In this document: positions 22,183 through 27,041 of the stretch, piece after piece
Layout: each line of letters opens with the position of its first letter
Position numbering within the stretch: the stretch's first letter is position 1
IMG/VR virus record: IMGVR_UViG_3300028805_002025
Span: 32,001-96,000 of that record
DNA length: 64,000 nucleotides
Reading direction: 5' to 3' (one strand)
Origin: a virus
Taxonomy: Duplodnaviria; Caudoviricetes
Notes under the pieces: model-generated
Told to the model about the DNA's origin: nothing
Seen by the model: the letters and a program-made list of their open reading frames with translations, nothing else
The model's database searches: none
Position numbers and translations under genes: made by a program

Positions 22183-22660
22183 TCTTCTTATCCTTTAGTA
22201 CAAACTGATTATCTTCTCCTTTTTTAAAACAACTGCAAGCTTTCTTATTGCTTTTATCCCAATCGACCCTATATTCAAGAAAGTGATGCCAACGGTCAAC
22301 GTAGTATTTGACATACACACCAGTACCCTTTTTATTCATTACTCCCATCCACCAGTGCCTCCAGTATCTTTCATCAAAATCCTCTTCGTCCTTGTATCTG
22401 TCATAGAGCATTTGCCACCTTGGGTTTGAGTTTCTTCTCTTCACAAGGTTTGGTGCTAATATGAATAACCTAGTTACAAAGCATCTAAGCTGTCTGTTAT
22501 TCCTGGACAGATACCCTTCAACAAAGTCCTTCTTGAAGAGGGGTCTTGTTTTGAAGTATCTGTTTCCTGGATTATGTGATATGATTTCCCTAAAGAACAG
22601 ATACTCACCCAAGGTACAATTCTCCCGTAGGAACTGCAAGAATAGTTGGGTGGCTGTCAT
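22127..22660 (-). CDS. Hypothetical protein
   Basis: ORF fits operon packing. Confidence 0.6.
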   Translation of the reverse strand: MTATQLFLQFLRENCTLGEYLFFREIISHNPGNRYFKTRPLFKKDFVEGYLSRNNRQLRCFVTRLFILAPNLVKRRNSNPRWQMLYDRYKDEEDFDERYWRHWWMGVMNKKGTGVYVKYYVDRWHHFLEYRVDWDKSNKKACSCFKKGEDNQFVLKDKKNGTNTRLQSSPRRPHLRR

Positions 22661-22662
22661 GG

Positions 22663-22863
22663 TTAAATCATTTCATTGATAGCCTTCAGAACCTTGTTTA
22701 TCTCCTTTGGATTCTTCTTTGCCATCTTGTTGAACACCTCAATAGCCGTAGCCCTATCAATCTCATTGCTCTTGAAAGCCTCAGCAGCATTCAAGATAGC
22801 GTCAACCTGCTCCATAGGCATGTTTAACGCTGATGCCATTGTCTTCTTTACAAAAATATTCAT
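22663..22863 (-). CDS. Hypothetical protein
   Basis: First ORF after TATCTTTGCA promoter at 22894. Confidence 0.6.
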   Translation of the reverse strand: MNIFVKKTMASALNMPMEQVDAILNAAEAFKSNEIDRATAIEVFNKMAKKNPKEINKVLKAINEMI

Positions 22864-23158: not shown

Positions 23159-23395
23159 TCAATCCCAGAACCACAACTCGTAGTTATTCATCTTCTGATG
23201 GCTAAGTCTTTCTCCATCAAACTCTTTGAACCATTTCTTATTCCTGTAGTACCACTTGAATTTTTTATGCCTTCTCCCGAAAACATGAGGACTGGTTTTC
23301 CTCCATGACTGAACCGAATATGAAGGACGCTTGGTCTTATTGCGCATATTCTTCCAGAACCTCTTAGGTGTGTTAAATTTCTTACCTTTGCTCAT
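23159..23395 (-). CDS. Small basic hypothetical protein
   Basis: ATGA overlap with upstream gene. Confidence 0.55.
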   Translation of the reverse strand: MSKGKKFNTPKRFWKNMRNKTKRPSYSVQSWRKTSPHVFGRRHKKFKWYYRNKKWFKEFDGERLSHQKMNNYELWFWD

Positions 23396-24264
23396 CTTTT
23401 TTTCATTAAACTATTCCTTCTTTGGTTATACGTCATACCATATCTGTCATTAACCTCATATGCTTCCATTTCACCTTTATTAGAATAGTAGTCTTTTTCC
23501 AACTCTTCAAATCCAGGATATTTTTTCAATCTATCTTGTGCGTCTTTAATATATTCATCAATAGTATCTCCGTTTTGAACCCACAACGCAATGTCTACTA
23601 GAGAATTCCTTTCTGGAGAGTCCTTATCATATGATTTAGACATATTGTAGATTTCTTTCCAATCAAGCCCCCTAACTTTTTCTGCTAACTCCATACTTGT
23701 CTCTATTTCTTTTTTAATTTTTTCATATGTCAAAAGATTAGGGGCTGGTGCTCCACCTTCCCAATTCTCATACCATTGAATTACATGTTGTATTTCGTGC
23801 TGAATTGTTGAATTACACTGGCGTTTTAAAAAATCTAACGGTAAAGCTGTCTTATTTTCCCACCATATCAAAGAAGGAGGTATTTGAATAAAATCAGGTC
23901 CTGTTTGTGCAAAATTACCACCATCCCCATATGCTAATAATATTCGTGTATTTCTAAGGTTGGGATACCACTTGTACAAATCGTCATCATCCCACAAATC
24001 AGATAACACTCGTATACTAGAGCTAGGAACTTGTTTGACAGTACCATCAACACCTTCATATTTCCAGTTTCCATCATACCCTATCTCCCAGCCTGTGGTT
24101 TGTTTTATTTTAAGAGGGTCTTCATTTTTTTCCATCATGGTCTTAGCGTTCTGTAATGCCAGCATTTCTGGTGACTCCTCACCTAGGTTAGCAAGACCAC
24201 GCTCCCCTCTAAACGATTCTGAAAACAATCTTTTGAATTTAGATTCTGTAAGTTTAATAATCAT
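23392..24264 (-). CDS. LPD23-like (polyvalent-protein) domain with zincin HExxH motif and LTES leader
   Basis: A..M......I...TGW..G.DG.WKYE, HEIQHVIQ, Y....GE.EA; N-terminus MIIKLTESKFKRLFSE. Confidence 0.7.
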   Translation of the reverse strand: MIIKLTESKFKRLFSESFRGERGLANLGEESPEMLALQNAKTMMEKNEDPLKIKQTTGWEIGYDGNWKYEGVDGTVKQVPSSSIRVLSDLWDDDDLYKWYPNLRNTRILLAYGDGGNFAQTGPDFIQIPPSLIWWENKTALPLDFLKRQCNSTIQHEIQHVIQWYENWEGGAPAPNLLTYEKIKKEIETSMELAEKVRGLDWKEIYNMSKSYDKDSPERNSLVDIALWVQNGDTIDEYIKDAQDRLKKYPGFEELEKDYYSNKGEMEAYEVNDRYGMTYNQRRNSLMKKR

Positions 24265-24289: not shown

Positions 24290-24327
24290 TTGGGACAGTG
24301 GGATTCGAACCCACAATGACAGCTCCA
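24290..24327 (-). pseudogene. 3' half of a split tRNA-Gln
   Basis: TGGA-GCTGT-CATT-GTGGG TTCGAAT CCCAC-TGTCCCA-A: anticodon remnant, T arm and acceptor 3' strand. Confidence 0.8.
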
Positions 24328-25194
24328 TTAGTGCCTTTTTAAATATTCTGGATTTCCGTTATTAAATTTCCATTTTATTTTTTCATTAAAAATCTCTCTT
24401 ACATAATTTCTCATTTCAACGGAATAAGTTGGTAAACTATATTTTTCACACCATTTCACAACGGCTTTATCACTAACACCATATTTTCTCCCAACGCCAG
24501 TAAAAGAACCAATTTTTCTAAAATCATTCAATAGCTGTTCTTTTGAAATTATTTTATTAGATTTTGGCTGCTTATTAACTATTTTCATTTTTTTCAATTT
24601 ACGTCCACAATAGTTATCTGTTAAAGTGTGACAATTAGGGCATAATAATTGTAAATTTTCAAGCCTATTATCAGTTCTATCACCATTAATATGATGTAGC
24701 TGTAATGGGATAGGTTTGCCATACCATTCTGATAAGCCACATTCTGGATTTTCGCACTTATGTTCTTTTATTCCTTCATTTAACAACCTTTCTCTTAATC
24801 TTGGTATAGAAATTGTTGAACCTTTAACTAGATACTCTTCTATTGAAATCTTTTTTTTAATACAACCTGGTTTATATGGTTCATATTCATTAAAATGTGA
24901 TATATCAATTTTATTTTCTTCTAAAATTTTCCTTATTTGTTTATAATATTCATTTGTTCCTTTTTTACCTAATATATGTAGTATTTGGTTAATATTGGTA
25001 CATTTTTTAGCAAGTTCGCATACCATATCTACATATTTTTGGTGCGATGATTTTTTTTCATCGTATTCATCAAGATTAATCTTATTGCAGTAGCAAGCGT
25101 TTGATTTGGTAATCAAAAGTTCTTTAGCTATTTCTCCAAAGCTTTTACCAGCTTTTCTTAATTTCTGTACTTGTACTATTATTTCTCTATCCAT
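24328..25194 (-). CDS. HNH homing endonuclease with flanking HTH-like domains
   Basis: CENPEC...LQLHHINGDRTDNRLENLQLLCPNCH; AT-rich; start set at ATG after ATATTTAT. Confidence 0.9.
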   Translation of the reverse strand: MDREIIVQVQKLRKAGKSFGEIAKELLITKSNACYCNKINLDEYDEKKSSHQKYVDMVCELAKKCTNINQILHILGKKGTNEYYKQIRKILEENKIDISHFNEYEPYKPGCIKKKISIEEYLVKGSTISIPRLRERLLNEGIKEHKCENPECGLSEWYGKPIPLQLHHINGDRTDNRLENLQLLCPNCHTLTDNYCGRKLKKMKIVNKQPKSNKIISKEQLLNDFRKIGSFTGVGRKYGVSDKAVVKWCEKYSLPTYSVEMRNYVREIFNEKIKWKFNNGNPEYLKRH

Positions 25195-25262
25195 AGTATA
25201 ATCGTTTTTATATAAATATCTAAATCCTCCAAAAAAAATACGATTATACCACATTTATTTTG

Positions 25263-25334
25263 TAGGGAACAATTGAGTTGAACAATTACCTGTCGAGTCA
25301 AAGTCGCTTGTGCAGACCGCTACACCAGTTCCCC
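25263..25334 (-). tRNA. Atypical tRNA-Gln(TTG), copy A
   Basis: Acceptor GGGGAAC/GTTCCCT, D stem GTGT/GCAC, loop CT-TTG-AC, T arm AATTG TTCAACT CAATT; only 3 Watson-Crick pairs in anticodon stem. Confidence 0.7.
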
Positions 25335-25337
25335 ATA

Positions 25338-25363
25338 TTGTGTTACCATTACACCATGTCCCA
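25338..25363 (-). pseudogene. 5' half of the split tRNA-Gln
   Basis: TGGGACA-TG-GTGTAATGGTAACAC-A; TGGGACA is exactly complementary to TGTCCCA of the 3' half. Confidence 0.75.
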
Positions 25364-25368
25364 GTATG

Positions 25369-25440
25369 TAGGGGTGGAATGAGTCGAACATTCACCTGTT
25401 GAGTCAAAGTCACTTGTGCAGACCGCTACACCACACCCCC
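25369..25440 (-). tRNA. Atypical tRNA-Gln(TTG), copy B
   Basis: Acceptor GGGGGTG/CACCCCT, same D arm, loop CT-TTG-AC, T arm GAATG TTCGACT CATTC. Confidence 0.72.
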
Positions 25441-25560
25441 AGATACGAAAATAGGGTATTCGGATTCCTGTTACAGACCGTAATACCCTGGTGTGCCTTA
25501 CGTTCAAGGCACTAAGCAATAAGTCATTTGACAATGAAGTCAAATACCAATCGACAAAAG

Positions 25561-25655
25561 TACCCCTGGAGGCTCTCGAAACCTCACTCCTACCGTTTAT
25601 CACTTCGGAACACAGATTCTCAACCGTGCGCGTCTTCCCTTTCCACCACAGGGGT
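25561..25655 (-). tRNA. Atypical tRNA-Leu(GAG)-like with 8-nt anticodon loop and long variable arm
   Basis: Acceptor ACCCCTG/CAGGGGT-A, Leu-type D arm, stem CACGG/CTGTG around TTGAGAAT, T arm GAGGT TTCGAGA GCCTC. Confidence 0.6.
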
Positions 25656-25697
25656 ATATATTGTGGGTATTACGTTCAAGTAACACCCTGTTGTTGC

Positions 25698-25958
25698 TTA
25701 AATACCATCATACATTCCTAATATTTTCTTTATTTTATCTCTTCTTTCTTTGCTCTTAGCTTCTTTATCATCAAACGTCTTAACCCATTCATTACCTTGA
25801 CTGGTAAGCTCCCAGGTCTCGCCATCAATGCTGATACATGATAGCCCACTCAACCTTCCGACACCACTCTCCCCAATTATGGCAGTAAGTTCATCAATGT
25901 CTCCACTACCATTGGTTATAATGGGATGTTGTATCATCTGTTTAAAAGTCAGCTCCAT
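25698..25958 (-). CDS. Hypothetical protein embedded in tRNA array
   Basis: Start moved to ATG just downstream of a tRNA-Leu; the longer ORF-track version overlaps tRNAs. Confidence 0.6.
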   Translation of the reverse strand: MELTFKQMIQHPIITNGSGDIDELTAIIGESGVGRLSGLSCISIDGETWELTSQGNEWVKTFDDKEAKSKERRDKIKKILGMYDGI

Positions 25959-25962
25959 AATG

Positions 25963-26045
25963 TACCTCCAGTGAGACTCGAACTCACACGTTTCATAACA
26001 GGGGCCTCTCGAACCCCCCTGTCTACCCGATTCCAGCATAGAGGT
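25963..26045 (-). tRNA. tRNA-Leu(GAG) with C33
   Basis: Acceptor ACCTCTA/TGGAGGT-A, stem GGGGT/GCCCC, loop TC-GAG-AG, T arm GTGAG TTCGAGT CTCAC. Confidence 0.75.
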
Positions 26046-26056
26046 ATGTAAATATG

Positions 26057-26144
26057 TACCCTCGGTGGGACTCGAACCCACACACTACTGTTATTTCGCA
26101 CCAGATTCTTAGTCTGGCATGTCTACCAATTCCATCACAAGGGC
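26057..26144 (-). tRNA. tRNA-Leu(AAG)
   Basis: Acceptor GCCCTTG/CGAGGGT-A, stem CCAGA/TCTGG, loop CT-AAG-AA, long variable arm, canonical T arm. Confidence 0.85.
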
Positions 26145-26150
26145 ATGATG

Positions 26151-26273
26151 TATCACCTGCTGTGTGAGCCAACGCCCGTACCCGTTGACACTCCGACCCT
26201 GCTCACATCACACATACAGACTGTACTCAAAAGAAGTGCAACATTGGACTTACCTTCTCGGTCTTACAGGTGA
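26151..26273 (-). ncRNA. Unassigned structured RNA within the tRNA array
   Basis: Closing stem TCACCTGT/GCAGGTGA, internal stems GAC/GTC, GCACT/AGTAC, GTGAGC/GCTCAC, CAACG/CGTTG; ends in TAC like flanking tRNAs. Confidence 0.45.
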
Positions 26274-26276
26274 ATG

Positions 26277-26358
26277 TATCCCTGGTGGGGGTCGAACCCA
26301 CATGTCCTCTCGAACATACGGTCTGAACGTACTGCGTCTACCATTGCGCCACAGAGAT
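26277..26358 (-). tRNA. tRNA-Leu(CAG)
   Basis: Acceptor ATCTCTG/CAGGGAT-A, stem GTACG/CGTAT, loop TT-CAG-AC, T arm GTGGG TTCGACC CCCAC. Confidence 0.85.
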
Positions 26359-26364
26359 ATGTTG

Positions 26365-26448
26365 TAGCTCTAGAGGGACTCGAACCCTCACGCCATCGCT
26401 GACACTTGATTTTGAGTCAAGCCTGTCTACCAATTCCAGCATAAAGCC
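26365..26448 (-). tRNA. tRNA-Leu(CAA)
   Basis: Acceptor GGCTTTA/TAGAGCT-A, stem CTTGA/TCAAG, loop CT-CAA-AA, canonical T arm. Confidence 0.9.
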
Positions 26449-26570
26449 ATATTAGATTTCGTGACCTACACGAGACCGCTAGTCTCCGTCCTACCACACA
26501 CCATCGCCTCGGCTACTTACATTATGATAACAAAAAAACACCGTGAAACAGTCACTTAACTGAATCACGG

Positions 26571-26605
26571 TGCAAAGATATGGATTTTTTTTTAAAAAAC
26601 CAAAT
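26571..26605 (-). promoter_or_regulatory. Bacteroidota primary-sigma promoter driving the tRNA array
   Basis: TTTGG...TATCTTTGCA followed by hairpin CACCGTGA...TCACGGTG. Confidence 0.75.
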
Positions 26606-26750: not shown

Positions 26751-27041
26751 AGTTAGTTTAATATTTTAATAACGTTATTATTTTCCTACAGACATGATTG
26801 CATCGTGATATCATGGGTGGAAACTCTGTTCCATCCTTACCTAGCGAGTCGTTGCAATCGTAGCTGACCTGCTGATATCATTATGCTATCACTAATATTC
26901 CTCATATCTGTATTATAAATATAACAATTTATTAAAAATATCAAATAGAAACCCTAAAAAATTATCTTTTTTTCCATTCGATATACAAATTGTAGAACAG
27001 GAAGTATGCCACAAGACTTAAAAAGTCCACAAACAGCATTA

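Follow-up and report, generated by a model that had tools for sequence, protein, structure and literature searches.

Two neighboring tRNA-Gln(UUG) genes in a phage tRNA array share an anticodon stem of three normal pairs where five are usual. The locus raises the question of why two such genes are present, whether they work, and why the stem is short. They lie in the window, the whole stretch of 64,000 nucleotides that was analyzed, which is part of a 241,681-bp viral record with a completeness of about 75%; complete relatives are about 412 kb in length. The record is represented in sheep and cattle gut sequencing runs. The nearest relatives of the phage ClpP are Bacteroidales proteins, and the host is therefore probably a member of the rumen Bacteroidales. 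Outside the window, the genome (G000) encodes about 45 tRNA genes, including two Gln(CUG), and a tmRNA. A separate Leu/Gln array at 25263–26448 is the sole site of intact Gln(UUG) genes in the sequenced part. INPHARED blastn matched short tRNA-Gln stretches only and returned no cultured relative. An exact 20-mer search among viral contigs gave zero matches, and one further sequence-pattern search gave only chance matches in protein-coding DNA.

The twin genes and their array

Copy 1 (25369–25440, reverse strand) is a resident type without a link to an HNH gene, and is also found in the HNH-free strain L184 with one loop change. Copy 2 (25263–25334, reverse strand) is the passenger of a cassette. 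Both are 72 nt in length, counted to A73, and were called tRNA-Gln(UUG) by ARAGORN. Covariance-model scoring, a check proposed in the initial annotation, gave 51.3 bits for copy 1 and 45.2 bits for copy 2 on Rfam RF00005, above the gathering score of 29. The copies differ at 13 positions, 12 of which form six two-sided pair changes. These are acceptor pairs 5–7 (AAC/GTT versus GTG/CAC), anticodon-stem pair 29-41 (C-G versus T-A), and two T-stem pairs (AATTG/CAATT versus GAATG/CATTC), exactly as the initial annotation had described them. The remaining difference is G57/A57 in the T loop. Both copies have A27.C43, G28.A42, and G1.U72, and the RF00005 alignment flags exactly 27.43 and 28.42 as non-standard in both. 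The minimum-energy fold of either copy lacks a cloverleaf (z about −0.7), which is common for unmodified tRNAs. A contig of RNA run X3 spans 25356–25510, including copy 1, at a depth of 3 like its neighbors, and may derive from DNA.

The rest of the array (25560–26448, reverse strand) encodes tRNA-Leu with CAA, CAG, AAG, and GAG anticodons, plus a Leu-like tRNA whose anticodon loop has 8 nt, as identified by ARAGORN, Rfam, and the syntenic arrays L119–L129 and L180–L184. Ahead of the array is a terminator-like hairpin with a U tract (26532–26573, reverse strand), present in the MFE and centroid folds and absent from a simple scan. A 22-codon leader ORF (26837–26905, reverse strand) with clustered Gln (CAG, CAA) and Leu codons is conserved in L121, L180, and L184, and is a possible attenuator candidate.

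Several other tRNAs of these phages are unusual. The Leu-like long-arm tRNA (25560–25655, reverse strand) has an 8-nt anticodon loop with a GAGA or AAGA reading and a U53.G61 pair, is conserved in relatives (L123, L180, L184, L221), and could be a frameshifting or non-decoding tRNA. In the window it lies midway inside a structured non-coding element with complementary ends (about 25450–25700, reverse strand), which precedes the Gln genes in many relatives (L181, L182, L247). The tRNA-Leu AAG (A34; 26057–26144, reverse strand) is of a type rare in bacteria and is conserved in most relatives. Long-variable-arm tRNA-Gln genes (UUG, CUG) are found in L121, L122, L124, L181, L182, L218–L220, and L248 and at 22616–22703 of the genome, and G000 also encodes long-arm Trp, Thr, Lys, Arg, and Ile tRNAs. 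The relative G002, which reads as code 11, encodes an amber-suppressor-type tRNA (CUA, long arm) at 134142–134227 (L233).

Copy 2 entered with an HNH gene

The twins flank half of a canonical tRNA-Gln(UUG), its 5′ part with acceptor strand and D arm (25340–25363, reverse strand). The 3′ half, from U35 to A73, lies at 24290–24327 (reverse strand). L180 and L184 have an intact canonical gene with a 5-bp stem whose ends match both halves exactly; the halves equal the first 24 and last 38 nt of the L184 gene. Between them are copy 2 and a gene encoding a 288-aa HNH endonuclease (24328–25194, reverse strand; 27% GC), whose stop codon abuts the canonical 3′ half. In two independent runs, 24327 is joined to 25340 with 9 letters between, which represents the empty site. 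From the empty-site reads and L180 and L184, copy 2 and the HNH gene therefore form a 1,012-bp insert (24328–25339, reverse strand) that replaces 9 nt (positions 26–34) of the canonical gene. Copy 2 and the HNH gene thus arrived together, as one cassette, and broke up a canonical tRNA-Gln(UUG) gene. Two copies are present because one is the passenger of that cassette, a point that the initial annotation of the twins had missed.

Two other origins were rejected. Tandem duplication is ruled out by the empty-site strains and the 13 differences. A self-splicing or tRNA intron is ruled out by the loss of 9 nt of the split tRNA, and Rfam found no intron family in the window. The HNH gene was identified by Pfam (HNH_3), PHROGs (HNH), alignment, and GC content, and its HNH and zinc motifs are intact. 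Its predicted structure is poor (pLDDT 62), and a PDB sequence search with the protein gave only a weak match to McrA. An LPD23-domain gene (23392–24264, reverse strand) directly follows the split tRNA; it is absent at this place in L180 and L184, and so appears to be a second recent insertion.

HNH proteins of related cassettes are 75–83% identical. The same cassette splits the canonical Gln gene in L181, L182, and L247 and leaves mosaic 3′ halves; L247 is an independent twin with the same layout as the window. Only a 5′ remnant of the canonical gene, fused to another tRNA, is left in L218–L222. The cassette is found in other arrays in L183, L215, and L255. A copy-2-type tRNA lies 68–75 nt before the HNH start in L181, L182, L183, L215, L218, L220, and L247, and one also precedes it in L255. 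The tRNA-HNH link is not absolute. In L225 and L226, an HNH homolog (74%) precedes the 3′ half of a tRNA, and of the passenger tRNA only both ends remain; the HNH gene was kept after the tRNA was deleted, so the passenger is dispensable there. In L248, a 63% HNH homolog follows a long-arm Gln gene. Short-stem genes of the resident copy-1 type occur without HNH in L127–L129, L169, and L184.

Traces of further rearrangement were seen. At L130 (431–529), in an unrelated tRNA array without HNH, a copy-2 gene identical to that of the window comes after the 5′ half of a canonical Gln gene, which appears to be a case of nuclease loss with the passenger kept. At L180 (9374–9510), a copy-1-type gene is itself split by a canonical tRNA-Gln(UUG), with no nuclease gene left, apparently a second round of tRNA-in-tRNA replacement. 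In L218–L222, directly upstream of the cassette, the canonical tRNA-Gln 5′ end joins the 8-nt-loop Leu-like gene at the D loop, and this chimeric tRNA is likely a co-conversion edge. A second HNH domain lies between two tRNA-Ser genes outside the window (genome 11935–12129).

The cassette has the features of a homing endonuclease: an intact nuclease domain, an allele absent from close relatives, and co-converted, mosaic flanks (L181, L218–L222). From the mosaic halves, recombination appears to have taken place within the D and T loops. T4-type SegB cuts tRNA genes and co-converts the region, a process termed intronless homing (PMC2330249), and the anatomy of the cassette fits homing of this type. 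It is likely that the HNH protein is a free-standing homing endonuclease that cuts the canonical tRNA-Gln genes of co-infecting phages, and that repair after the cut copies in the nuclease together with a replacement tRNA which it spares.

One possible reason for keeping the altered arm is immunity of the gene to the HNH endonuclease at the DNA level. The insertion point is in the anticodon arm (positions 26–34) in the window, L181, L182, and L247, and divergence there should give self-immunity. However, immunity requires different letters rather than unpaired ones, the mismatches are kept in HNH-free phages, and the split copy-1-type gene in L180 was interrupted by another tRNA-Gln. As a cause of the short stem, such immunity is quite improbable, and it is likely a side benefit.

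Positions 27.43 and 28.42 across the family

Homologs were retrieved without fixing the stem letters, using a D-arm pattern, a loop pattern, HNH linkage, and synteny. One retrieval pattern did fix the mismatch letters, and L127–L131 are therefore a biased sample; the unbiased loci are L169, L181–L184, L215–L223, L247, and L255. Among 11 distinct aligned variants, 19 of the 21 pairs are always paired (209/209 cells) and 8 pairs show two-sided change, whereas 27.43 and 28.42 are paired in 0/22 cells. A 12th variant (L255) agrees. The positions stay unpaired even where their letters change, as in L183 (A27.G43 and A28.G42) and in L215–L217 and L255 (A27.A43). A bulged register, with G28-C43 paired and A42 looped out, was rejected because it is broken in L183, L215, L216, and L255. 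Covariation in the alignment exceeds all 500 shuffles and all slid controls. The two window genes represent a conserved tRNA-Gln(UUG) variant found in rumen jumbo phages, in which 27.43 and 28.42 stay non-Watson-Crick while the rest of the cloverleaf is clearly under selection and kept by compensatory change.

The initial annotation had proposed that the structure is under selection, that the mismatches are maintained, and that the genes are not decaying, and it had named homologs with 5-bp stems as contrary evidence. All three proposals stand, and every UUG homolog retrieved without fixed stem letters has both positions unpaired. Pseudogene decay could be read from the two mismatches, from an Rfam score below that of typical tRNAs, and from copies broken in L180 and deleted in L225. 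It is hardly conceivable given the pair counts and covariation of the 11 variants, on which it was rejected. The G1.U72 pair, which the initial annotation had listed with the mismatches, is present in both window copies and is not invariant in the family, where L129, L131, and L169 have A1-U72.

The stem pattern was found in none of 613 other distinct viral tRNAs, 80 of these being Gln(UUG), and in none of 75 viral Gln(UUG) chosen via D arm and loop. Bacterial tRNAs with anticodon stems of 2, 3, 6, or 7 bp account for 0.2% combined (PMC13092985). The anticodon loop varies within the family, switching between viral and host types at position 37 (A or G) and position 32 (C or U), and the constant oddity is therefore the stem and not the loop. 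All variants have one common D arm and variable loop and therefore derive from one ancestor. The nearest outside relatives are phage Gln(CUG) genes (L185–L187, L198) that share the D arm, variable loop, and G1.U72 and have 5-bp stems; L171, a phage tRNA-Gln with G1.U72 and a normal 5-bp stem, is also among the nearest outgroups. Across a genome collection, the D-arm motif was found in His, Phe, and Asp tRNAs of bacteria, all with normal stems, and never with a UUG anticodon, which gives no indication of a host origin.

Descent from one ancestor suits the view that the short stem is a tolerated, frozen quirk of an ordinary working tRNA-Gln, which arose once, was fixed by its fit to the tRNA body (U21, 4-nt variable loop), has no defense role, and spreads as a hitch-hiker of the HNH gene. 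Four substitutions were seen at the four mismatch positions and none restores a pair, an outcome with a chance of about 0.12, and single-mismatch stems are frequent in these phages (9/38 in G000, 11/47 in G002). However, no variant has the transition A27G or C43U, either of which would by itself bring back a pair, although 8 other pairs changed on both sides. The related Gln(CUG) genes have the same body and 5-bp stems, so the body does not need the mismatches, and HNH-free copies persist. A frozen quirk is thus unlikely, though far from negligible. Because the variants share an ancestor and the chance is about 0.12, active selection against pairing at 27.43 and 28.42 is suggested, not proven.

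Decoding, nuclease resistance, and known systems

Related arrays with a readable Leu/Gln cluster each have at least one Gln(UUG), and canonical, long-variable-arm, and short-stem genes are interchangeable in this slot. Many relatives carry 5-bp Gln(UUG) only, and five arrays (window, L247, L129, L131, L169) have no intact Gln(UUG) other than short-stem genes. As the variant fills the slot, sometimes alone, it is probably a working elongator. G2-C71, G3-C70, G10, U35, and G36 are among the GlnRS identity determinants (PMC9976931); all are invariant in the 11 variants, which have Y34-U35-G36. U33, the D-loop GG, the T loop, and R37 are invariant or canonical in the family, and the cloverleaf elbow is intact. 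The 1.72 pair (G.U or A-U) is weak and differs from the usual U1-A72, and position 21 is U; weakened 1-72 pairs favor Gln insertion (PMC9976931). The A73 of the variant is also the discriminator of Bacteroidales tRNA-Gln, whereas E. coli has G73. CCA is encoded in L127–L129, L131, and L169. Most Bacteroidetes use GlnRS (PMC3927822), and no phage GlxRS or CCA-adding enzyme was found in the phages searched (G000 being about 75% complete). The usual 5-bp anticodon stem of an elongator tRNA-Gln is absent throughout the family. Together, slot replacement, GlnRS determinants, CCA, and the leader and terminator favor a probable working elongator. We are fairly confident that the variant would be charged by host GlnRS and decode CAA and CAG, with the top of the anticodon arm held by stacked purine-rich mismatches.

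These features bear on three other roles. The initial annotation had raised a non-ribosomal aminoacyl donor, comparable to the staphylococcal non-proteinogenic tRNA-Gly, and no support for this was obtained. The altered arm and a T stem rich in A and U could reduce use on the ribosome; EF-Tu compensation, however, makes a weak T stem the expectation for tRNA-Gln. The T loop and D-loop GG are intact, as are U33 and R37, four related phages yielded no FemAB or CDPS gene (with G000 about 75% complete), and the gene sits in a Leu/Gln array behind a leader of Gln and Leu codons, all of which make a donor role extremely unlikely. Near-cognate readthrough, in which an unpinned 27.43 raises first-position wobble and the UUG anticodon reads UAA or UAG as Gln, has precedents. 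In yeast and E. coli, Gln-type tRNAs show more first-base wobble when the anticodon stem is mutated (PMC3664417, citing Schultz and Yarus 1994), and a 4-bp-stem tRNA-Trp reads UGA (PMC13092985). It is very improbable here, as the genome reads as code 11 with TAA as the main stop (138/184). Nine stops were found inside 57,000 residues aligned with G002, none facing Gln, and recoding was rejected. Lastly, in the decoy reading that the initial annotation had also raised, an uncleavable look-alike could bind a host tRNA nuclease or sensor as a decoy or competitive inhibitor and do little decoding. The two lost pairs exceed those of any rescue tRNA in PMC12445682, and competition by viral tRNA has been raised as a possibility for AriB (PMC12409363). 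However, rescue in the OLD study was by replacement and not inhibition (PMC12445682), and synthetase, T-stem, and elbow features are kept. The variant is also the sole Gln(UUG) in several clusters, which makes a decoy less likely; we judge it improbable overall.

A working elongator may have a short stem to resist cleavage, in line with the nuclease-resistant class suggested in the initial annotation, for which the literature offers a direct parallel. P2-OLD cuts the anticodon stem, and phage tRNA-Thr6 and tRNA-Thr21 resist it by a shortened stem and a changed CNG motif, losing one pair versus two in the short-stem tRNA-Gln; stem amputation lets the nuclease escape ligases (PMC12445682). AriB also cuts within the anticodon stem (PMC12409363). 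CAG/CUG stands at 28–30/40–42 in the split phage gene and in each of six Bacteroidales tRNA-Gln genes. In the short-stem variant, C28 is never present and the paired C28-N-G30/C40-N-G42 motif is lost, so relative to the inferred host tRNA it shows both the shortened stem and the CNG loss. P2-OLD substrates also need A37 (PMC12445682), and host tRNA-Gln has G37. An RtcB RNA ligase (genome 29075–30298, outside the window), encoded in all four related phages, is consistent with a tRNA-cutting conflict. No Bacteroidales host nuclease targeting tRNA-Gln was identified. By analogy, the short stem and CNG loss may shield the variant from a host nuclease with a requirement for a double-stranded anticodon stem, for which an OLD- or AriB-type Toprim enzyme would be a candidate, and so keep Gln decoding going during host defense. 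We consider this the most probable reading of the short stem, at slightly less than even odds. More tentatively, and less probably than not, the whole could be a selfish two-part cassette, in which the HNH endonuclease cuts the canonical, cleavable gene, puts a nuclease-resistant 3-bp-stem tRNA-Gln in its place, and so spreads this tRNA among jumbo-phage populations; homing would then deliver an anti-defense allele, which would imply an undescribed Bacteroidales defense that cuts the anticodon stem of tRNA-Gln.

A natural family with three Watson-Crick anticodon-stem pairs, which supplies some phages' only intact array Gln(UUG), tests the minimal helix length in decoding. The family predicts a tRNA-Gln stem-cutting defense in rumen Bacteroidales, and the variant, a repaired variant, and the canonical gene of the empty-site strain are matched substrates for finding it. 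The cassette offers a mechanism for fast turnover of tRNA alleles in phage arrays, as a homing nuclease would swap isoacceptor genes.

Phages are already known to encode resistant tRNAs with shortened stems, and homing nucleases within their tRNA arrays. In a literature search, mostly without subscription papers, neither a 3-bp-stem phage tRNA nor an HNH cassette with a same-anticodon replacement tRNA was found to be described. Phage rescue tRNAs, namely Thr6 and Thr21 against P2-OLD (PMC12445682) and T5 tRNA-Lys(UUU) against PARIS AriB (PMC12409363, PMC11464382), likewise have the host's anticodon, a stem shortened at 27.43, and a changed CNG at 28–30/40–42. Here the tRNA is Gln rather than Thr or Lys, two pairs are lost rather than one, the probable host is Bacteroidales, carriage is by a probable homing cassette, and the type of nuclease that would be resisted is suggested by resemblance. 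Canonical bacterial and phage tRNA-Gln(UUG) (PMC9976931) have the same anticodon, G2-C71, G3-C70, and G10, and the variant has the viral Gln loop type and A73 as in Bacteroidales; it differs in R1.U72 for U1-A72, U21, and unpaired 27.43 and 28.42. The 4-bp-stem tRNAs (Blastocrithidia-type tRNA-Trp; bacterial survey PMC13092985) are also a natural, conserved unpinning of the anticodon-stem top, whereas the tRNAs described here have three pairs, are phage-encoded, and have no recoded stop codons found with them. The SegB gene of T4 and T6 (PMC2330249, PMC13096335) is likewise a nuclease gene in a phage tRNA array that is absent from close relatives and moves with neighboring tRNA genes; SegB cuts tRNA genes and can raise anti-defense tRNA dosage. 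SegB is a GIY-YIG enzyme that favors no isotype, whereas the cassette encodes an HNH enzyme, is lodged in and destroys one tRNA gene, and carries one fixed passenger with the same anticodon.
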